Of a DNA stretch of 64,000 bases, positions 3,236 to 31,031 are shown one piece after another. The notes under the pieces are model-generated. The model saw nothing but the letters and a program-made list of their open reading frames with translations, was not told the origin of the DNA and did no database searches. The translations under genes and the position numbers were made by a program. This stretch comes from Gemmatales bacterium. GTDB taxonomy: Bacteria > Planctomycetota > Planctomycetia > Gemmatales > HRBIN36. Numbering within the stretch: position 1 is the first letter of the stretch; every line of letters begins with the position of its first letter. The stretch lies in contig JAXMBC010000001.1 of NCBI GenBank assembly GCA_046350055.1, forward strand, positions 1,214,660 through 1,278,659, in the 5' to 3' direction.

Positions 3236-4324
3236 CTACTTCTTCTTCTTCACCTCTTCCAGTAAGCTCCGGGCTTCTACCACCTGCTTCGTATCATCGT
3301 AATCGCTGATGATCTGCTTCAGGAAGTCCTCGGCAATACTGTAATCCTTCACCTTCATTGCCCGCTTGGCGAAGTTCAGTTTCGAGAGTGCTGCCTTCTC
3401 GCGCGGATCGAGTTTCTCCTCCGCAGGCTTCTCCTTCTCAGCCTTCGTCACTTCCTTGCTGCTCTCCGGTGCTGTCTTGTCCGGGCTGGCTTGTGCCACC
3501 GTTGTCGTACGGCGAGGAATAATCACCTTCTTGTCCTTCAGCAGTGTCTTCACTTCGCTCAGATCGATGAAGGTAGATAACTGGTTGGCCGAGGTGATGC
3601 CACCCTGGGTAACACCTACCAGCTCTCCTTCATCATTCACCAGCGGGCCGCCTGAATCACCTTTGTTGGTTGGATTGGAGCTTTCAATCATGCGGGCTTC
3701 GATGGTCAGCGATTCCCCCTGCCCGATCTGCACCACAAACTTCTTGTCGTAGATGCTGCGAACACTGCCATCGGTATAGCTCCACATGCCACCCGCCCCG
3801 GTGTTGCCAATAGTATGTACTCGCGAACTGGGCCGTGGACTATTCTGGGCCAGTGGCAGCGTCGTTACTCCCTTGGGCAGTTTCTGGCCTGCATCGAATT
3901 GCACTTCGACCAGGGCCAGGTCTTTGTTCTTCAGGTACGTCACAATCTTGCCCCGGAAGGTATAGATCGGATCGCCGCTGCTTTGCATGTACTTGCTGCG
4001 ATCCTGCTCCACTTCCCCCCGGCTGTTCTTGACCGGGAACATCACCCGCACTTCCGCATGGTTGCCATCGCTCTTCACACACGGAGCCACGACATGATAA
4101 TTGGTGATGATCAGGGGCAAATTGGTGCGGGGAGACAGCCCGATGAATGATCCGGAACCCGTCGCTGCCCGGCGACTCCCATCACCCAGGGGGGACAAGA
4201 CAAAGACAGTGCTGCGGAGTGTCTTGTCGAAGACGGTCTCACCCGCCTTGGTTCCCTGCGCGTGAATGGAGTGGCATGCAATTAGGAACAGGAGGATCGT
4301 CGCTGCGGCGCGCATAGGAAGCAC
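3236..4324 (-). CDS. secreted trypsin-like serine protease (S1C/DegP-type catalytic domain) with a Lys/Glu-rich C-terminal tail
   Basis: It has a signal-peptide-like N-terminus, a TNYHV histidine motif, a DLALV aspartate motif and a GDSGGPLV serine motif. Confidence 0.8.
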   Translation of the reverse strand: MLPMRAAATILLFLIACHSIHAQGTKAGETVFDKTLRSTVFVLSPLGDGSRRAATGSGSFIGLSPRTNLPLIITNYHVVAPCVKSDGNHAEVRVMFPVKNSRGEVEQDRSKYMQSSGDPIYTFRGKIVTYLKNKDLALVEVQFDAGQKLPKGVTTLPLAQNSPRPSSRVHTIGNTGAGGMWSYTDGSVRSIYDKKFVVQIGQGESLTIEARMIESSNPTNKGDSGGPLVNDEGELVGVTQGGITSANQLSTFIDLSEVKTLLKDKKVIIPRRTTTVAQASPDKTAPESSKEVTKAEKEKPAEEKLDPREKAALSKLNFAKRAMKVKDYSIAEDFLKQIISDYDDTKQVVEARSLLEEVKKKK

Positions 4325-4934: not shown

Positions 4935-5006
4935 TACCCCGTGGTGTAACTGGTAACACTAGAGTTTTTGGTACTCTCATTTCTGGTTCGAATCCAGACG
5001 GGGTAA
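4935..5006 (+). tRNA. tRNA-Gln (anticodon UUG)
   Basis: A hand-folded cloverleaf. The acceptor stem is TACCCCG/CGGGGTA and the D stem is GTGT/ACAC with a GG loop. The anticodon stem is AGAGT/ACTCT with loop TT-TTG-GT. The T arm is TCTGG-TTCGAAT-CCAGA. CCA is not encoded. Confidence 0.9.
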
Positions 5007-22857: not shown

Positions 22858-23622
22858 ATGATCATGCGTTGCCTGGCCATCGCCTGCCTCTTCATCGCTC
22901 AGACAGCGTACGCCCAAACCGTGCTGTTTGATGAAACCGCTGGCACACTTCCCGCTGCCCAGGGCTGGCTCACCTACATCGTCCAGGGCTCCGCCACTCA
23001 GACGTACCTGACCAACCAGGGCGTGCAACTGGTCACCGATAACGCTACCCAGGCAGGCTACTTCAATCGCAATCTCTTCACCGGCACTCTGGTCAACCCC
23101 GCCTTTCCCGTCCTCCAGCGTAACCCGGGCTTTGCGGTTCGCTTTGATCTCACCGTGACCGCGGAAGCCCATCTCAACAACAATCGTGCAGGCTTCAGCG
23201 TCATCGCCCTCGCCAGCGATGGCATGGGCATTGAACTGGGCTTCTGGGCCAACGAAATATGGGCCCAGAACGACACCCCCCTCTTCACTCACGGCGAAGG
23301 CGTAGTACGCAACACCACCTCTGCTACCAGCTACCTCCTCAGCCTCGTCGGCAACAGCTATCAACTGGTAGCGGACGGTTCTCCGATTCTCAATGGTGCG
23401 CTGCGCAACTATTCCTCGTTCGGATTTCCACCCTACACCTACACCAGCTTCCTCTTTCTGGGGGACGATACCACCAGTGCCAGCGCCGATGTCACCCTCG
23501 GCCGCGTGACCCTCCTCGCCAGCGTGCCAGAACCAGCCAGCTGGATGATGATGACGGTAGCGGTGCTGGGCGCAGGCTGTTGCTATCGGCGATGGAAGCG
23601 CGGAAACATACAAGTCGCCTGA
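22858..23622 (+). CDS. PEP-CTERM sorting-domain protein
   Basis: The start is taken at MIMRCLAIACLFIAQTAYAQ (signal peptide). The C-terminus is VPEPASWMMMTVAVLGAGCCYRRWKRG. Confidence 0.75.
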   Translation: MIMRCLAIACLFIAQTAYAQTVLFDETAGTLPAAQGWLTYIVQGSATQTYLTNQGVQLVTDNATQAGYFNRNLFTGTLVNPAFPVLQRNPGFAVRFDLTVTAEAHLNNNRAGFSVIALASDGMGIELGFWANEIWAQNDTPLFTHGEGVVRNTTSATSYLLSLVGNSYQLVADGSPILNGALRNYSSFGFPPYTYTSFLFLGDDTTSASADVTLGRVTLLASVPEPASWMMMTVAVLGAGCCYRRWKRGNIQVA

Positions 23623-23758
23623 TCGTTACGGTGTAGACTTCGCAAACATTGTCTTCGGGGAGAATATCGTAATCGCTGGCCACATCATATCGGGGAATAA
23701 TCAGCCTGCCACACCCGCAAGCCTCCGCCACCGAATGTTAGGCTGTTGCATTGGCTGG

Positions 23759-24136
23759 TTATACCCCGCCCGCTGGCGGGAAGTCACCGACGCTGAAAGA
23801 GGCCCATGACAGCCCAGCGACGTGCGGTCGCCCCGACTTGGCGTCAAATACGCCTTCCAGAACGCTCACATTGTCATTCGCGATCAACGGCCCAGACACG
23901 AGCCAGTCGCTCGCAATACGGTTAGCAACGAGGAGTAATTCGAACACGCCCGTTGCCGCCGGGGATGAAAACGGGCTGCGAAGTGCGACCTCCCACAGCT
24001 CGGGCACCTTCCAATACGGCTTCGGAGCCTCGACGACTTCGGACGGAAGGACTTCGCGGGTTCGCGCAAGACACCGGTCGGCGCCCGCAGCGTCGTTCAC
24101 ACGAAACATCAGACGCCAGGCAACCTGAAGGGGCAT
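23759..24136 (-). CDS. cassette ORF g, hypothetical
   Basis: A 125-aa ORF from the ATG at 24136; the track starts it at the GTG at 24154. A GCCGAAC box lies just upstream (complement of 24157-24163) and a GCCTAAC box just downstream (complement of 23737-23743). Confidence 0.5.
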   Translation of the reverse strand: MPLQVAWRLMFRVNDAAGADRCLARTREVLPSEVVEAPKPYWKVPELWEVALRSPFSSPAATGVFELLLVANRIASDWLVSGPLIANDNVSVLEGVFDAKSGRPHVAGLSWASFSVGDFPPAGGV

Positions 24137-24172
24137 AACGTAGGTCCGGTGCACTGGTTCGGCGTCAGCGGC

Positions 24173-24493
24173 TCACCCACCGATCAGTTGCTGCCATCCG
24201 AGCAACGCCTGACGGAACTCGTCCAGCCCGACACGGCACACCGGCATGGACTCGTCCCACAGGCACTTGATCTCGGCCCCGGCAGCCGACAGGGTAAGCA
24301 GGAACGCATTGCCGGTGCCGCTGAACCCCGACTGACAACCTGCGGCGACCGCCTCTGCCATCTCCACCAACTCGGCAGCCCCGTTCGGGCTGGATTGGAC
24401 ATCCTGTTCCAAGAACCAGCCGACGGCCTCGTGTGGCGGAGCCACCTCGCACCGCGGGTAGCCATGCGCGTCTCGCAGGAACCGGGCTTCCAC
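24173..24493 (-). CDS. cassette ORF f, hypothetical
   Basis: A 106-aa ORF with a GTG start, preceded on the minus strand by GTTCGGCGGCGGAGGGCTTGCGGCA. Confidence 0.5.
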   Translation of the reverse strand: MEARFLRDAHGYPRCEVAPPHEAVGWFLEQDVQSSPNGAAELVEMAEAVAAGCQSGFSGTGNAFLLTLSAAGAEIKCLWDESMPVCRVGLDEFRQALLGWQQLIGG

Positions 24494-24600
24494 TGCCGCA
24501 AGCCCTCCGCCGCCGAACGACCCCGCTCAGCGGCCGCGGGGGCTCGGTGAGCTGTGAGTCGCAGAAACGCTACATGCCCCCGCCGGTCTGCTGCAGCGCC

Positions 24601-24834
24601 TGGATACTAATCATAGCCCTTCGGTTACAGTGAAGTCGGCGAACTTCACTCCAGGAGAGACTACGATGCGTTACTACACCCAGACTCACCCATACTACTG
24701 TGGCGTCGACCTGCACGCAAGAAGCCCGGGTGCCATAGCCTGCGTGTACTCACGCTGGCTATGCCGAGGTACCCCAAGGTTCCGGCATAGTCAGGTCGAG
24801 TACGACCAGACTAGGGCCCCCTTGCTATAGAGGG
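24601..24834 (+). mobile_element. recombinase-less remnant of an IS110/IS1111-family element inserted in an attC-like site
   Basis: The left end has the hairpin AGTGAAGT-CGGCGA-ACTTCACT and GGAGAG upstream of the ATG at 24666. It encodes MRYYTQTHPYYCGVDLHARS, where GVDLH corresponds to the N-terminal GIDxH/K motif of DEDD (IS110) recombinases. The ORF is then fused directly to module A1. Confidence 0.5.
24725..24817 (+). repeat. structured module A, copy 1 (candidate IS1111-type right end / guide RNA)
   Basis: H1 is 24734-24763 (CATAGCC-T-GCGTG TACT CACGC-T-GGCTATG). H2 is 24759-24790 (CTATGCCG...CGGCATAG). H3 is 24794-24807 (GGTCG AGTA CGACC). Confidence 0.7.
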
Positions 24835-25262
24835 GTTCGGCGTGCCTCTGCTTCTGCAGCCCACAGGGACCAATACCGCTCGGCCGCCGCCTCCAACTCC
24901 GCCTGCGACAGCGGCTGGCCCTCGGCGGTGGCTGCGTGTGTTGACGAGTACCGCGTCAGCAGGTAGCCGCCGCCCCCACGGTCCGAGCACTCGACGCGGA
25001 TGGCCCCCTCGGCCACCTCCGCCGACAGCACCTCCAGGCCGATCGCGGCGATGGCGACCGGGTCGGACACCGGCGGCCCCTCGTAGGGGTGGTACTCGAA
25101 CCGCTCGCACCCGGTGAGCGTGACCAGCACATGCTCGGCGCGGGTGGGCAGGTGGCCGCACAGGTACGAGATGCCGACTGACAGCCGGAGGTCGCCGGGG
25201 ACTGAGCCCTCGGCTGCCGACACCTCGCCGTCGTGCAGCACGTTCCAGATGGCGACATCCAC
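24825..25262 (-). CDS. cassette ORF e, hypothetical
   Basis: A 145-aa ORF with a GTG start and GGAGGG 9 nt upstream. The GCCGAAC box overlaps its last codons (CGC CGA ACC CCT CTA TAG). Confidence 0.5.
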   Translation of the reverse strand: MDVAIWNVLHDGEVSAAEGSVPGDLRLSVGISYLCGHLPTRAEHVLVTLTGCERFEYHPYEGPPVSDPVAIAAIGLEVLSAEVAEGAIRVECSDRGGGGYLLTRYSSTHAATAEGQPLSQAELEAAAERYWSLWAAEAEARRTPL

Positions 25263-25286
25263 CCGTTGCGCCCTCCGCCGCCGAAC

Positions 25287-25442
25287 AGATGCTTCTCTGA
25301 CCTATAGGTCAGAGAGTAAACTACACAGGTCAGATAATACCGGCTTGTCTCCAGCCTGGTCAAGCGATTACATCGAAACGTCGGCTTTCCTGATCTCCCA
25401 CTTTCTCCAAGCCGTCCACTAGCCACCACCCTGGTGTACAAG
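25287..25442 (-). promoter_or_regulatory. element B, copy 1 (short form): outward promoter plus palindromic operator/hairpin facing ORF e
   Basis: On the minus strand, TTGACC (25363-25358) is followed by an 18-nt spacer and TATTAT (25339-25334). A CTGACC half-site and the perfect 22-bp palindrome TCTCTGACCTATAGGTCAGAGA (25294-25315) follow. Confidence 0.55.
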
Positions 25443-25534
25443 CCTATCATAACAGGGAGGCAGGCCTGCGAAGGTCGTGGAGACGGTCTGTCTATAGAGT
25501 GCAGTAACCGTGGCACGATGAACTCCGCCGCGCG

Positions 25535-25630
25535 CCCGGGTGCCATAGCCTGCGTGTACTCACGCTGGCTATGCCGAGGTACTCCGAGGTTCGGGCATAG
25601 TCAGGTCGAGTACGACCAGAGGCCGTCCGG
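25535..25630 (+). repeat. structured module A, copy 2
   Basis: It is near-identical to copy 1, with H1 at 25544-25573. The H2 3' arm reads GGTTCGGGC. It is preceded by segment C, which ends in ATGAACTCCGCCGCGC. Confidence 0.7.
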
Positions 25631-25788
25631 TAATTGAGTTGATCTAAACTGCCTGATCTCTTGAGGTTACGTTGTTGTTTGCCAACGCCAACGCAACACA
25701 TCAGGAGATCAGGCATTGCTTAGTGCCAAGGACGGCACGTCGCTCGCCACGTTGATACAGCAAGCCATTCCTGTTTGTCAGGAAGCGG

Positions 25789-25890
25789 CGGGTGCCATAG
25801 CCTGCGTGTACTCACGCTGGCTATGCCGAGGTACTCCAAGCTTCCGGCACAGTCAGGTCGAGTACGACCAGGCTTTGGCACCCGTGCGAG
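25789..25890 (+). repeat. structured module A, copy 3, with a perfect closing stem
   Basis: The closing stem is CGGGTGCC (25789-25796) paired with GGCACCCG (25877-25884). H1 is at 25796-25825. The module ends at the stop codon of ORF d. Confidence 0.7.
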
Positions 25891-25894
25891 CCAG

Positions 25895-26413
25895 CTACCA
25901 AGTCCGATGATAGCGGAACCCATCGTGATCCGTGCCCTCGATGTATCCCATCGCTGACAATGTCTGTTCAGCCGCCCGCCGCCGCGTGAACCCGAGCAAG
26001 TCCTCGCGGCCGGCGTTCGTGAGTTCCGCGGCGACCCGCTCAAAGGTGCACCGCGGGTCGTGACCGAGCAACTCGGCCGAGCGCCACGGGAGCGGCATGA
26101 CCAAAAGCTTCTCCCGGTCGTCGTCGGGGTCCGCCAGACCCAGAGCGAGGAGGGCCAACTCGAGCGTCTCTAGGGACGCCCGGCGCACCGCCAGTGCAGC
26201 GGATCGCTCCGCGTAGCACAGCAGGACGGATGCTAGCCCGCCGTCCATGCAGCCGAGAAATTCGGCGGCAGACGGGCCAGCGTCACGGGCAGTCCGCAGG
26301 AGTGCCTCGACGGACTCATCAAGCGGATGAGGTATAGGCCGCGGGCCGTAGCCATCGTACACGCCGTCTCAGATTGCGGCGTCAACCCGGTCAGCAATGT
26401 CGTCGAGACCCAT
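25895..26413 (-). pseudogene. cassette ORF d with an in-frame TGA after codon 14
   Basis: On the minus strand, GAGGAGG lies upstream (7-nt spacer) of the ATG at 26413. This encodes MGLDDIADRVDAAI, then TGA (26371-26369), and the same frame continues DGVYDGYGPRPIP... to 25895. The track lists only 25895..26362. Confidence 0.45.
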
Positions 26414-26427
26414 CGCCCTGCCTCCTC

Positions 26428-26523
26428 GCCGAACGACCCCGCTCAGCAGCGGCGGGGCACCGGCGAGCTTGGACTCCCAGAACAGCGTCATGCCCCGCCG
26501 TCTGCTGCAGTGCCTCGTTCGGC
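26428..26523. other. intact attC-like site (96 bp)
   Basis: It runs from GCCGAAC (26428-26434) to GTTCGGC (26517-26523). The arms CAGCAGCGGCGGGGC and GCCCCGCCG-T-CTGCTG pair, leaving one unpaired T. Confidence 0.6.
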
Positions 26524-26529
26524 GTGCCT

Positions 26530-26931
26530 TTAGCTCATCTGGAGCCGGAACCCAATGCCCTCTGACGCTGCAACCCCAAGGACCCGCGCCATCTCCTCCA
26601 ACTCCTCGACCACTCCGGCGGACTCGTCGAGCCGCTTCGCCGCCTTCGGGCTGGCCTTGATGTGGTCGGCGAGGGCTTGCATCGCGGCCCGGCCCTCGGC
26701 CGGATCGAACCACTCAGTCCACTCGCCCATGACCTCCGCAAGGTCGTCCGGATCGCCGTCGAAATCCTCGGGGATCGGGCGGTTGTCCGCGAACGCCGTG
26801 AACGGCGTGAGCTTGGCCGCCCGTGCGATCTTGTCGAGTACCTCGAAGTTCGCCGCCAAGACCTCGCCGAGGGCGACGAACTTGGTGCCCGTCAGCTTGG
26901 GCTGGAACACTGGGTAGATGCCCAAGCTCAT
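26530..26931 (-). CDS. cassette ORF c, hypothetical (acidic; immunity-protein-like flavour)
   Basis: A 133-aa ORF with the ATG preceded by GGCGGAGGGCAAGCGG. It reads MSLGIYPVFQPKL...PEDFDGDPDDLAEVMGEWTEWFDPAEG. Confidence 0.55.
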   Translation of the reverse strand: MSLGIYPVFQPKLTGTKFVALGEVLAANFEVLDKIARAAKLTPFTAFADNRPIPEDFDGDPDDLAEVMGEWTEWFDPAEGRAAMQALADHIKASPKAAKRLDESAGVVEELEEMARVLGVAASEGIGFRLQMS

Positions 26932-26954
26932 CCGCTTGCCCTCCGCCGCCGAAC

Positions 26955-27173
26955 AGTTGTTTCTCTGACCTATAGGTCAGAGAGTAAACTACACAGGTCA
27001 GATAATACCGGCTCGACTCCAGCCTGGTCAAGCGATTAGCCTCGGATGGTCCAATTCCCTGACCTAAACTCTGATGAAGCTCCTCGACTACTGACAAACT
27101 CTGTCTCGACCTTTCAGTTTACTATCTGCAACTTTCTCCAAACCGTTCACTAGCCACCACTCTGGTGTACAAG
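26955..27173 (-). promoter_or_regulatory. element B, copy 2 (long form): outward promoter plus palindrome facing ORF c
   Basis: On the minus strand, TTGACC (27031-27026) is followed by an 18-nt spacer and TATTAT (27007-27002). The palindrome is at 26962-26983. Confidence 0.55.
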
Positions 27174-27174
27174 T

Positions 27175-27290
27175 CCGGGTGCCATAGCCTGTGTGTACTC
27201 ACCCTGGCTATGCCGAGATACTCCAAGGTTCCGGCATAGTCAGGTCAAGTACGATCAGACTAGGGCACCCGGGCACCCGTGCAGCGACTG
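27175..27290 (+). repeat. structured module A, copy 4, with a closing stem and full 3' tail
   Basis: The closing stem is CCGGGTGCC (27175-27183) paired with GGCACCCGG (27264-27272). The tail GCACCCGTGCAGCGACTG abuts GTTCGGC (27291-27297). Confidence 0.7.
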
Positions 27291-27304
27291 GTTCGGCGGC
27301 GCCC

Positions 27305-27772
27305 TCACTCTTTAATACCCCAGCCCGCTAGTCGTTCCTTATGAGCGGCCGTGACTGCATTTTCATACGCAGCAGGGTCATTGAGCAATGTGGGCAGAAT
27401 GATTTTCTCGATGTCATCGACGACCGCATCAACGATGTCGCGCCCATCCGTCGTTTCGACGGCCCACTGCTTTTCGTTAAACCGGACTGCGCTTTCGCTA
27501 GCCCGGCCAAGCCGTTTGATCAAGTCGTCGTGACCACAAAGGAACTTCCCGTAATCATAGTTCGGTAATCCTAACTCGTCGTACCGAACAATCAGTCCGA
27601 TCTTTACCGGAGGCCTAATGTAAAATCCGTTTGAAAAAGGGCCGCCAGAACTGACAGCATTGTGTTCGGCCTCAAAGACGAATCCGTGCGGATTCAGGAT
27701 CGGATCGAGCCGGGCGACAATTGCGAGCAGGCGATCGTGCGGTTGTCCCAGGTATTTTGAGGACTTACTCAT
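27305..27772 (-). CDS. cassette ORF b, hypothetical
   Basis: A 155-aa ORF from the ATG at 27772 (MSKSSKYLGQPHD...). The track start at 27799 lies inside the attC-like site. Confidence 0.55.
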   Translation of the reverse strand: MSKSSKYLGQPHDRLLAIVARLDPILNPHGFVFEAEHNAVSSGGPFSNGFYIRPPVKIGLIVRYDELGLPNYDYGKFLCGHDDLIKRLGRASESAVRFNEKQWAVETTDGRDIVDAVVDDIEKIILPTLLNDPAAYENAVTAAHKERLAGWGIKE

Positions 27773-27787
27773 GTCAGTCACCAAGCC

Positions 27788-27882
27788 GCCGAACGACACC
27801 GTTCACCTGCGAGGCGGCCGGTGAGACGTTGAACCCTGAAAAACCGTGATGCCGCCGCGTCAGGTGCAACGGCTGGTTCGCT
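27788..27882. other. intact attC-like site (95 bp)
   Basis: It runs from GCCGAAC (27788-27794) to GTTCGCT (27876-27882). The arms CACCTGCGAGGCGGC and GCCGCCGCG-T-CAGGTG covary relative to the site at 26428-26523. Confidence 0.6.
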
Positions 27883-27890
27883 GCGGCCCC

Positions 27891-28436
27891 TCAGTCGCAG
27901 TCTTGGTAGCCACCCAACTGACCACATTTTCTGCACCGAAACATGTACGCAGTCGGTGATCCTTCCTTGTCGAGTGCGGCGAGAAACTCCTCCCACTCGG
28001 GGCCATCTGAAAGGCCCGCGGAATCTTGAATCGCAGCTATTGCTTGTGGACCGAGAGCCTTCAACTCCTTCTTCCCAGCGCGCCCGATGAACTCAGCTGC
28101 ATCGCCACAATGGGTCCACCATTGCTCTTGTTGCCAGCCCGAGAATCCGGGAGTGCGATGGGCCACCTCCTCGATCACCTCTTCCGGCACTTCATCCCAC
28201 ATCCCGCCGCCGCCAATGCCGGCATCGTCGGTGAAGCTCGCTTCCAGTTTTTCATTAGCGGACCCGTCTGCGATGCACCAGGGGCATATGCATTGGTCGT
28301 ATTCCTCCACGGCGTAAACGGGGCCGGTGTAGATGAAGCCGCACGCCTTCCCACAGCAGGCGCATTCGGTATCGGACTTGATGACCATTCCGGTCGCCAA
28401 GGGGTCAGGGTGGTACTTGAAGGTTGGCAGTGCCAC
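27891..28436 (-). CDS. cassette ORF a, CbrC/UPF0167-family protein (colicin-tolerance-associated family)
   Basis: It reads LPTFKYHPDPLATG...CACCGK...CPWCIADGSA...FRCRKCG. It has a GTG start with AGGAG 7 nt upstream. Confidence 0.65.
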   Translation of the reverse strand: MALPTFKYHPDPLATGMVIKSDTECACCGKACGFIYTGPVYAVEEYDQCICPWCIADGSANEKLEASFTDDAGIGGGGMWDEVPEEVIEEVAHRTPGFSGWQQEQWWTHCGDAAEFIGRAGKKELKALGPQAIAAIQDSAGLSDGPEWEEFLAALDKEGSPTAYMFRCRKCGQLGGYQDCD

Positions 28437-28459
28437 GGTCGACTCCTAAAGCAGCGAAC

Positions 28460-28679
28460 AGTTGTTTCTCTGACCTATAGGTCAGAGAGTAAACCACACA
28501 GGTCAGATAATACCTGCTTGTCTCCAGCCTGGTCAAGCGATTAGCCTCGGAAGGTCCACTTCCCTGACCTAAACTCTGATGAAACTCCTCGACTACTGAC
28601 AATACTCTGTCTCGACCTTCAAGTTTACTATCTCCAACTTTCTCCAAACCGTCCACTAGCCACCACCCTGGTGTACAAG
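28460..28679 (-). promoter_or_regulatory. element B, copy 3 (long form): outward promoter plus palindrome facing the cbrC-like ORF
   Basis: On the minus strand, TTGACC (28536-28531) is followed by an 18-nt spacer and TATTAT (28512-28507). The palindrome is at 28467-28488. On the plus strand it is followed by segment C (28680-28770), but no module A is present. Confidence 0.55.
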
Positions 28680-29189
28680 CCTATCATAACAGGGAGGCAG
28701 GCCTGCGAAGGTCGTGGAGACGGTCTGTCTATAGAGTGCAGTAACCGTGGCACGATGAACTCCGCCGCGCACACAATCGCACGGTTGGTTGCATCGCCAC
28801 GAGGTGCTGCAGACGCGGCAGGATGCCGCGTCTACTTTGCGCACATGCGGTGCTGGGGATGAACCACTTCGCGTGCACGCGAGCCTTCAGATGGCGCGGG
28901 CGCGAATAGTTTGCTGCTGCATGAATCGACGGTGCACAGAATTCTGACGTAAGTCATTGACATCATTAACGATGCGCTGCGCACGAGTGGTTTGCCAGAT
29001 GAACTGAGACTGCACTGCCCCCGACTCTGCGACCCAAAGCCTCCCGCATACGGTGGATGTCGCCCTGAATCCACACCTCACCTTCACGCCAACCCTCGCT
29101 GCCATCCCTATACTAAACAGTTGCCAAGTCACCCAACCATTCGCCCCGCTCCTTCACTCTTCCGCTAAGGAGTCGGGCCAGGAAAGCAC

Positions 29190-31031
29190 ATGAAACGGAA
29201 CGATATTCGCAATGTCGCCATCATCGCCCACGTCGATCATGGCAAAACCACGCTCGTCGATGAAATGCTCAGGCAGTCAGGCCTCTTCCGCGCCGGCGAA
29301 CTCGAGAAGCTCGAAGGAGGCCAGCACGGCCTCATCATGGATTCCAACGAACTGGAACGGGAGCGGGGCATCACCATCCTCGCCAAGAACTGTGCCATCA
29401 AGTGGGGCGATACCAAGATCAACATCATCGATACCCCCGGCCACGCCGACTTCGGTGGCGAAGTGGAACGCGTCCTTCGCATGGCGGACGGTGCCGCACT
29501 GCTGGTCGATGCCGCCGAAGGCCCGTTGCCTCAGACCCGCTTCGTGCTCCGCAAGGCGTTCGAGTGTGGCCTCAAGCCCATTGTGGTGATCAACAAGATC
29601 GATCGTCCCGATGCCCGGGTGCAGGAAGTGCTCAATGGCATCTTCGATCTCTTCGTCGATCTCGATGCCGATGATGCGACCTGCGACTTCCCCGTGGTGT
29701 ATGCCTCGGGCCGCAATGGCTGGGCCAAGCTCAGCATGGATGACGAGAGCAAGGACTTGCGTCCCCTCGTCGAAACCATCATGAAGCACGTGCCGCCGCC
29801 TGATGTGAACCTGGATGCACCAGCCCAGTTCCAGGTGAACAACCTCGACCACAGCGAATTCGTCGGCCGCATTGCCGTGGGCAAGGTCTACGCTGGCAAG
29901 CTCAAGAAGAACCAGCGCGTGGCGGTGCTCTCCCGCGACAACAAGCGGACCGATTACAACATCAAGCAATTGCTGACCTTCGACCGTCTCGGTCGCAACG
30001 AGGTGGAGGAAGTGACCGCTGGCGACATCTGTGCCATCGTCGGCCTGACCGATGTGGAAATGGGCGACACGGTAGCAGATGTCGATCATCCCAATCCCCT
30101 TCCAGCACTGAAGGTCGATGAACCAACACTGACGATGCTCTTCCGCATCAACGATTCGCCCTTCTCCGGGCGTGATGGTGAGTACGTCACCAGCCGGCAG
30201 TTGCGCGACCGTCTGTTCAAGGAACTGGAACGCAACGTGGCCCTGCGGGTCGTGCCGGCAGCCAAGTCCGACGAGTTCATGGTCTCAGGCCGAGGTCTTC
30301 TGCACCTGGGCATTCTGCTCGAGACCATGCGCCGCGAAGGCTATGAGCTCAGCGTCGGCAAGCCCCGTGTCATCATGAAGGAAGAAGGGGGCATGAAGCT
30401 GGAGCCGGTGGAATACCTTGTGATCGAGTGTCCGCAAGGGTCCGTCGGTTCCGTCATGGAACTCGTCGGCAATCGCCGGGCAGAATGCCTGAAGATGGAT
30501 GCCCGAGGCGAACTGACCCACCTGGAGTTCACCATCCCCGCCCGAGGTCTCATCGGCCTCAAGACCCGGCTGCTCACTGCCACCAGCGGTCAGGCCATCA
30601 TGCACCACACGTTCTACGACTATCAGCCCAGCCGTGGAACCATCCCGTCACGGACCAACGGCGTGATGATCGCCACCGAAACTGGCCCCGCCACGTTCTA
30701 TGCCATTGAAGGCTTGCAGGACCGGGGCGTCATGTTCGTCTCGCCGCAGGATCAGTGTTATGAAGGACAGATCGTGGCCGAGCATTGCCGCGACAATGAC
30801 CTGCCTGTGAATATCGCCCGTGAGAAAAAGCTGACCAACATGCGGAACGCCAACGCCGAAAAGACGGTGGTGCTCAAGGCTCCCCGGCAGATGACGCTGG
30901 AAATGGCTCTCGAGTACATCGAAGACGATGAACTGGTGGAGATCACACCAAACTTCATCCGGCTACGGAAGATGATGCTCAAGGAAGCTGACCGCAAACG
31001 GTTCGACCGGTCGAACCGGGAGGCGGAATAA
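29190..31031 (+). CDS. typA: translational GTPase TypA/BipA
   Basis: It starts [24 protein letters not shown], has [12 protein letters not shown] and NKIDR, and is 613 aa long. Confidence 0.9.

Follow-up and report, generated by a model that had tools for sequence, protein, structure and literature searches.

The 64,000-nucleotide stretch analysed here (Gemmatales bacterium, assembly GCA_046350055.1, contig JAXMBC010000001.1, forward-strand positions 1,214,660 to 1,278,659; hereafter the window, numbered from its first base) contains, between a PEP-CTERM gene (end 23622; Pfam PF07589) and typA (start 29190), an array at approximately 23718-28770 that is very probably a cluster of attC sites without an integron integrase (CALIN), that is, an integron cassette cluster of the Planctomycetota chromosomal-integron system (order Gemmatales). 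The original prediction had described an integron-like attC array without an integrase, a reading now supported by a covarying fold, by strand, by linkage of the same repeats to integron integrase genes (intI) elsewhere, by matched cassette ends and by the lack of an intI nearby. As IntegronFinder defines such sedentary chromosomal arrays, a CALIN holds at least two attC sites no more than 4 kb apart without intI (Cury et al. 2016, PMC4889954); here three sites are spaced by 1916 and 1360 nt, and the locus falls within the definition because the 64-kb window contains no integrase. The single orientation of the array and its small cassettes of mostly unknown function are likewise those of a CALIN, a class for which loss of intI or insertion at secondary sites has been discussed as the origin (PMC4889954). 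The locus is an ordinary, though decayed, instance of this known class; what is unusual about it is confined to the spacers, namely a junction module with a promoter, a hairpin repeat of ~100 nt and a probable insertion-sequence remnant.

Two attC sites are intact and a third is split, as had first been described. The attC of cassette c (26427-26524, plus strand; 90.3 bits, E 8e-24) runs from GCCGAAC to GTTCGGC, and that of cassette a (27787-27883, plus strand; 81.8 bits, E 2e-21) pairs an R' box GCCGAAC with an R'' box GTTCGCT. The attC of cassette e (24511-24603, plus strand; 66.6 bits, E 6e-17) retains R', the L' arm, the loop and the L'' arm; its model alignment breaks at CCTGG|ATACT, and its R'' box GTTCGGC is displaced to 24835-24841, approximately 231 nt beyond CCTGG (24603). 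The recurring GCCGAAC/GTTCGGC boxes on which the initial reading was built are real and non-random, with six occurrences of CCGCCGAAC in 64 kb against 0.6 expected, five of the six inside the array, although the far box of site 27787-27883 proved to be GTTCGCT (27876-27882). All three sites come after stop codons, and the plus strand is their bottom strand, opposite to the open reading frames (ORFs).

Folded as single-stranded DNA, the plus strands of the two intact sites reach -36.7 kcal/mol (z -6.2) and -30.1 kcal/mol (z -4.3), with an R box, a spacer of 5/4 nt, a 4-bp L box, a bulged C, 6 bp, a bulged T, a stem of ~10 bp and a variable loop, in that order. Counted from the 3' end of R'', the bulges are C16 and, after 6 bp, T23, both in the intact sites and family-wide; in attC(c) these two bases are extrahelical, in attC(a) the bulged C and T lie on the 3' arm, and the unpaired T is bulged exactly where it had been placed from the sequence. 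This arrangement is that of the attC bottom strand, in which the arm facing AAC has extrahelical bases at positions 16 (usually G) and 23/24 (T), 6 bp apart (PMC5027507). The dimensions also agree, with R boxes of 7-10 bp, the 5/4-nt spacer against ~5-6 nt in known sites, L boxes of 4 bp and a length of 97-98 nt in an expected range of roughly 57-141 nt.

Scanning a genome collection with the 5' arm CGCCGAACGACNCCGNTCA gave 119 loci, of which some 40 were metagenome-assembled genomes (MAGs) of Planctomycetota with full hairpins (Gemmataceae, Planctomycetaceae, Fimbriiglobus, Limnoglobus and Pirellula); actinobacterial and other loci lacked the hairpin and were set aside as chance matches. From 26 family members we built a covariance model, R1. 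In their alignment, pairing is kept in 94% of cells and 11 of 25 pairs are changed on both sides, which bears out the compensatory arm changes noted earlier; none of 500 shuffles reached the observed values, slid controls gave 26-42% paired, and the AAC/GTT ends are retained in 25-26 of the 26 members. Applied to the 64-kb window, R1 gave three matches only (the 90.3-, 81.8- and 66.6-bit sites above), all on the plus strand, and the best site on the reverse strand scored 33.9 bits. Across 42 planctomycete loci the family comprises approximately 125 distinct sites, which share one orientation within an array and number as many as 13 per 8 kb, with a median spacing of 647 nt and a median site length of 99 nt. 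Ghaly et al. (2021, PMC8352920) have published an attC covariance model specific to Planctomycetes, and the authors of IntegronFinder described integrons from this group (PMC4889954). Like the sites of that model, the family described here is conserved within its taxon in sequence and structure and occurs in chromosomal Planctomycetota arrays.

In the 64-kb window, tblastn with IntI1 and the IntI of locus L004 detected neither a tyrosine recombinase nor a fragment of intI (best E 0.17), which extends to the whole window the initial observation that no integrase precedes typA and leaves an intI-free flank of 23-35 kb on either side of the array. When a Gemmataceae IntI fragment was used as a homologue query it gave 7972 matches, and none of the 120 matches listed came from this MAG. 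Elsewhere the family does adjoin integrases: a search with an IntI1 sequence that served as a probe only recovered integrase genes next to family sites in other genomes. Locus L004 encodes a 333-aa protein matching TIGR02249 'integron integrase' at 445.6 bits (cut-off 265), and this intI is divergent from an attI ending ...ACTAG|TTCGGCGG, after which come an esterase cassette in first position and then a family attC. At L131 the intI is frameshifted and runs divergently from five sites, which score 38-44 bits with R1 and carry textbook GCCTAAC/GTTAGGC cores with identical geometry and the same C and T bulges. Because these sister sites have textbook cores, a C as the fourth base of the core is a variant of this lineage, within ordinary attC diversity; the substitution for a purine had been correctly noticed, but it does not mark a departure from the integron system. 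L053 also has intI beside family sites.

Two further observations concern the integrases of other loci. At L129/L130 (5001-10223) and L053 (4369-5517) intI is co-oriented with the cassettes and attI lies downstream of the intI stop, a layout distinct from the divergent one of L004 and L131. At L048 two fragments of ~65 aa (1412-1609 and 4102-4287) correspond to the IntI C-terminus at ~60% identity to IntI1 and sit within a 10-site attC array of a Gemmataceae MAG.

Integron recombination leaves its own signature at the cassette ends. For circles cut at G|TT, complementarity is predicted between a cassette's 5' end and the R'' of that same cassette, not the R'' that it faces in the array. The 5' end of cassette a, GTTCGCTGC (reverse complement of 28451-28459), is complementary to its own R'', GCAGCGAAC (reverse complement of 27876-27884), while its neighbours use GTTCGGC. 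Among 67 cassettes in the fetched loci, the base outside the 7-bp core was complementary in 70% of own-cassette pairs as against 47% of same-site pairs and 40% at random, and none of 10000 permutations reached the observed value. Rare core variants likewise go with their cassette, as seen for GTTAGGT (L088), for GTTCGGG (L055) and for the SMI1/KNR4 cassette of L121, whose 5' end GTTATTCC accompanies the R'' GGAATAAC (GTTATTC/GAATAAC).

These results bear directly on whether the hairpins could instead be generic intergenic palindromes, either REP- or MITE-like elements or terminators, with ordinary chromosomal genes around them and a coincidental likeness to attC. GC-rich hairpins between convergently packed small genes, with no integrase nearby, are what such an explanation would predict, but the data already contradict it and we consider it extremely improbable. 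The score differs by strand (90 versus 34 bits), bases 16 and 23 are bulged, as in canonical sites, and are separated by the 6 bp that IntI requires (PMC5027507), the same repeats adjoin integron integrases and an attI with a common core, cassette ends are matched, and within 64 kb the repeats of the array (the ~98-nt type A hairpins and the LE and D1 units described below) are confined to it. Intrinsic terminators were ruled out by the lack of T tracts after the stems, in agreement with the initial dismissal of a terminator reading; three terminator-like matches were present in the region, none at an attC or D1 site, a count not above that of shuffles.

All seven small minus-strand ORFs first proposed are present. 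Cassette a (27891-28436) encodes 181 aa of the UPF0167/CbrC family (Pfam 2e-60, NCBIfam 6e-43) and cassette f (24173-24493) 106 aa of UPF0231 (YacL-like). Cassettes b (27305-27772; 155 aa), c (26530-26931; 133 aa), d (25895-26413), e (24825-25262; 145 aa) and g (23759-24136; 125 aa) have no match in Pfam, NCBIfam or PADLOC, and no cassette ORF gave a defence match in PADLOC. The G+C content varies from 0.53 to 0.71 by cassette, being low in b (~0.53-0.55) and high in e (~0.71), with flanks at 0.56-0.63. The final codons of ORF e read through its own R'' box. A Shine-Dalgarno (SD) sequence had been proposed after every box, and this holds for c, d, e and f (GGAGG or AGGAGG) and for a (GTTCGCT followed by AGGAG), but it is weak in b and absent in g. 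Across the family, 60% of cassettes have an SD-like motif no more than 22 nt past the crossover and 17 of 122 begin exactly GTTCGGCGGCGGAGG, indicating that the ribosome-binding site belongs to the conserved cassette boundary in this lineage.

ORF d has an in-frame TGA (26369-26371) 14 codons past its SD-preceded ATG at 26413, and the open part is 25895-26362 only. The truncated 155-aa call is identical in the Logan assemblies of runs SRR26348423 and SRR26348419, and because two independent assemblies carry it an assembly error is unlikely; from its sequence, cassette d is a probable pseudogene. The product of ORF c is identical to NCBI protein U0796_05390 and has 116 homologues in Gemmataceae, almost all of them 133 aa long, which form a conserved family. 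Its Fimbriiglobus ruber counterpart is encoded downstream of four attC sites of the type A family, among different neighbours and in a different chromosomal context, with no intI within 6 kb. No homologue of the cassette proteins was found by tblastn in the 119 loci of the genome scan.

The cargo also brings to mind an orphan island of immunity genes from polymorphic-toxin systems, grown by duplication and homologous recombination. Cassette a belongs to a colicin-tolerance family (CbrC/UPF0167), L121 carries an SMI1/KNR4 (SUKH) cassette, and the genes are small, unrelated to one another and on one strand. However, no toxin gene or toxin C-terminal fragment lies beside the array, five of the seven ORFs have no immunity-family match, and the junctions are attC and attI-type with crossover signatures; we therefore see scarcely any likelihood in such an origin, and the type of cargo is compatible with integron mechanics.

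The spacers between cassettes are of two kinds, the ~98-nt type A hairpins and composites of 330-630 nt built from three other repeat units, so the initial view of the spacers as simple box pairs fails for most of them; the composites had been overlooked. One of these units, LE, had likewise gone unnoticed and is present in three minus-strand copies that share a conserved core of ~85 nt and precede cassettes a, c and e. LE-alpha (28460-28770; promoter 28536->28507, palindrome 28467-28488) heads the array before cassette a, LE-beta (26955-27170; promoter 27031->27002, palindrome 26962-26983) ends at G|TT before cassette c, and LE-gamma (25287-25533; promoter 25363->25334, palindrome 25294-25315) precedes cassette e. 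Each core contains a sigma-70-like promoter, TTGACC-N18-TATTAT, a perfect 22-bp palindrome, TCTCTGACCTATAGGTCAGAGA, and an A-rich tail, AACAACTG, that stops exactly at the crossover. Positions 25393-25533 of LE-gamma and 28630-28770 of LE-alpha are 99% identical over 141 nt, which argues for recent duplication rather than independent events. A further copy, on the 1.8-kb metagenome contig L121, precedes the unrelated SMI1/KNR4 cassette; it retains the hexamers (TTGACT, TAATAT) with a different 18-nt spacer, and because a stop codon in it breaks the sole reading frame common with the window copies, LE is non-coding.

LE thus ends at G|TT before four different cassettes. Cassette heads without a preceding attC at other loci show the same succession of an inverted repeat, a short A/T-rich tail and then G|TT; such a head lies 170 nt from the intI stop at L053, others head the arrays of L090, L042, L046 and L068, and those of L061 and L087 are internal. 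The promoter lies 81/52 nt from the crossover in the true attI of L004 and 78/48 nt in LE, so that the two are alike in a promoter start 78-81 nt upstream of the crossover, in the inverted repeat and in the A/T-rich tail. LE also resembles attI and genomic attG sites (Loot et al., bioRxiv 10.1101/2022.09.11.507474) in being predicted to act double-stranded, without a hairpin, in ending at G|TT and in having a promoter upstream. It differs from attI in the lack of an adjoining intI and in its three copies in one array. By this analogy, the chances seem about even that LE is a landing site of the attI or attG type whose promoter resembles Pc. As a separate observation, both long LE copies end on the plus strand with ATGAACTCCGCCGCGC (MNSAA...) at the same base (28756-28770 and 25519-25533), beyond which one copy runs into the region upstream of typA and the other into D1; judged from its sequence, ATGAACTCCGCCGCGC could be the stump of a deleted divergent gene, either intI or a transposase gene.

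D1, a second unit missed in the first reading, is a hairpin repeat of ~100 nt with four plus-strand copies located past the stop or the R'' of cassettes b, d and e. Copy 1 (24722-24830), found with the D1 model, abuts a probable IS110-family remnant within attC(e); copy 2 (25532-25636) is followed by a 150-nt segment (25632-25783); copy 3 (25784-25892) lies directly past the stop of ORF d; and copy 4 (27171-27279) scores 118.7 bits with the D1 model. One long hairpin and two tandem hairpins both fit the data, with one compensatory pair, and D1 has no match in Rfam. The D1 model matches the window and L121 only, and one copy at L121 directly adjoins GCCGAAC. A second class of attC formed by D1, or a single giant attC formed by the whole 330-nt spacer, was considered and rejected when the L boxes and extrahelical bases did not fit. 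The 150-nt segment between two D1 copies contains an 18-nt inverted repeat (25650-25667 / 25698-25715; 89% complementary), and at L121 the interval between LE and D1 (820-1010) holds a pair of small palindromic repeats, CCCAGGGCAACGCCCTGGG / CCCAGGGCGTTGCCCTGGG, which the window lacks.

The insertion that splits attC(e) (24604-24834, plus strand, ~231 nt) is placed at, or 1 nt from, the G|TT of R''. It consists of a 62-nt left end beginning ATGCGTTACTACACCCAGACTCACCC, an SD sequence, an ATG at 24666 with 20 codons running to 24725, D1 copy 1, approximately 13 nt and then the R'' box. The 20-codon peptide, MRYYTQTHPYYCGVDLHARS, matches the N-termini of IS110-family transposases at 65-74% identity (tblastn against plasmids, E ~2e-3 over 20 aa only), and the annotated features under these matches are exclusively IS110-family transposases; the stub gave no profile match and is too short for any. 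Members of the IS1111 group such as ISKpn4 and ISPst6 target one end of attC and encode a guide RNA downstream of tnp (PMC11187229).

The remnant also figures in a different account of the spacers, in which LE and D1 are not attI-type sites but internally deleted, attC-targeting insertion sequences (IS) of the IS110/IS1111 family. LE would then be an IS end kept for its outward promoter, and D1 a non-coding region of the seekRNA type by the other end. The transposase start lies beside D1 copy 1 at one end of attC(e), for which ISKpn4 and ISPst6, with attC-end targeting and a guide RNA downstream of tnp, are precedents (PMC11187229); LE always starts immediately past AAC; LE-alpha and LE-gamma hold a plus-strand ATG plus five codons ~300 nt from the AAC end; the middle of D1 contains GCCGA and GGTTCCGGC, resembling both strands of the attC core; and group IIC-attC introns are a known case of elements that sit in attC and carry outward promoters (PMC3001079). 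We nonetheless regard this account, including the roles that it gives to LE and to D1, as tentative and rather unlikely. No full-length copy was found, D1 and LE occurring in this genome and one 1.8-kb metagenome contig only, and the D1 flanks differ in each copy without target duplication. The LE-type junctions are like true attI sites and head other arrays, and four different cassettes adjoin LE at the same base, as expected of a recombination site and not of an IS end. The fold of D1 has one compensatory pair only, and there is no Rfam match.

Reportedly, the IS1111-attC group of the IS110/IS1111 family was described by Tetu and Holmes (2008) and by Post and Hall (2009). The window element may share with this group a transposase start at one attC end, a fixed orientation and a structured non-coding segment, D1, on the 3' side. 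It is unlike the group in that only 20 codons remain, no subterminal inverted repeats could be demonstrated and the host is a planctomycete rather than a proteobacterium; D1 also occurs without any IS sequence. Group IIC-attC introns (PMC3001079) offer a similar comparison, which lie within attC, run against the direction of cassette transcription and provide the cassettes downstream with a promoter, but the window spacers have no intron RNA domains (Rfam, E<=5) and no reverse-transcriptase ORF, and an intron remnant in the long spacers was ruled out on the lack of intron domains. At gathering thresholds over the whole window and at E<=5 over 23500-29200, Rfam, which contains no attC family, returned no attC, group II intron or known RNA family in the region of the array.

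A further and quite doubtful proposal is that LE and D1 together form a lineage-specific, non-autonomous module that spreads through integron crossover or through RNA-guided chemistry of the IS110 type. If so, each copy would install a promoter at G|TT and re-activate otherwise silent cassettes, giving a multi-headed array whose expression is no longer tied to the integron platform.

Whatever the nature of these spacers, the array is partly decayed, attC(a) and attC(c) alone being intact, and it differs from a typical CALIN in the extent of this decay and in the replacement of most attC sites by three promoter-bearing attI-like modules and lineage repeats. Cassette b retains only the L''/spacer/R'' end of its attC (27280-27297, plus strand), consisting of TGCAGCGACTG followed by GTTCGGC (27291-27297) and matching the 3' end of the family consensus. 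Cassette d has no R'' after its ORF. The junction between f and g has collapsed (24133-24163, plus strand): R''(f), GTTCGGC at 24157-24163, is separated by 17 nt from GCATAAC at 24133-24139, which reads GTTATGC on the ORF strand and contains the start codon of g, and the junction has no stable fold. At the distal end (23718-23743, plus strand) the GTTAGGC core first reported there is present at 23737-23743 and adjoins a degenerate cassette 5' boundary, CAAGCCTCCGCCACCGAAT; because g begins GTTATGC (reverse complement of 24133-24139), this core is plausibly the R'' of g. By its sequence, 23718-23736 appears to be a truncated eighth cassette head like that of f, which suggests that g is placed between the head of f and a decayed duplicate of that head. 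Positions 23699-23736 and 24480-24518 are 76% identical (repeat family D9), the latter comprising the head plus the first codons of cassette f. Replication slippage has been described as a way in which folded attC sites are lost (bioRxiv 10.1101/2022.09.11.507474).

Several points weigh against reading the locus as an integron cassette cluster. Intact attC sites make up 2 of about 8 junctions. R1 is derived from its own family and so tests family membership, not generic attC identity, and its seed was collected with a 5'-arm pattern, which makes that arm look more conserved than it is. Position 16 has an extrahelical C instead of the usual G, and the fourth core base violates RYYYAAC/GTTRRRY, with G/C replacing Y/R in a complementary change. 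LE adjoins no intI here, and its attI-like label draws on junction position and architecture only. The closest typA homologues (GCA_009612795.1, 93% identity; GCA_035430005.1, 92%) have entirely different gene neighbours, and attC, LE and D1 are all absent from their typA regions; this lack of synteny around typA leaves no shared locus at which to score cassette presence or absence.

Within the integron reading, which we favour, recombination activity of the window sites is predicted from their sequence. Each cassette would begin TTCGGC..., usually followed by an SD sequence and a start codon ~20 nt on, and would originally have ended in an attC of ~98 nt. An IntI supplied in trans would bind the folded plus strand of attC and cut between A and C of 5'-AAC-3' in GCCGAAC, and the cut strand would be exchanged with another attC or an attI-type site. 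With attC(a) and attC(c) as the sole intact sites, two units are expected to remain mobile, cassette a through LE-alpha x attC(a) and b+c as one block through attC(a) x attC(c), whereas the rest would be fixed: attC(e) is split by the probable IS110-family remnant, relics stand past b, d, f and g, and ORF d bears a nonsense codon. Expression would be independent of the integron Pc, with the LE promoters driving the cassettes.

The locus opens no new class of system. It is a documented example of the decay and domestication of a chromosomal integron array outside Proteobacteria, combining attC loss, a probable IS110-family hit on an attC end, a pseudogenised cassette and internal, promoter-bearing attI-like heads. 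A modest gain is the Gemmatales attC consensus, with its GTTCGGC core (GCCGAAC/GTTCGGC and C16 here, RYYYAAC/GTTRRRY and G16 in the general consensus), that rules based on the general motif would reject; a second gain is a candidate attI/promoter module.

Two observations concern sequence outside the array. A tRNA gene at 4935-5006, unrelated to the array, is the sole Rfam match at gathering threshold in the window. Upstream of typA, a 23-nt stretch (29105-29127) is 91-96% conserved in the two closest relatives despite their different neighbouring genes; a leader or promoter element of typA is its probable identity, and it marks the resumption of native sequence past the array.

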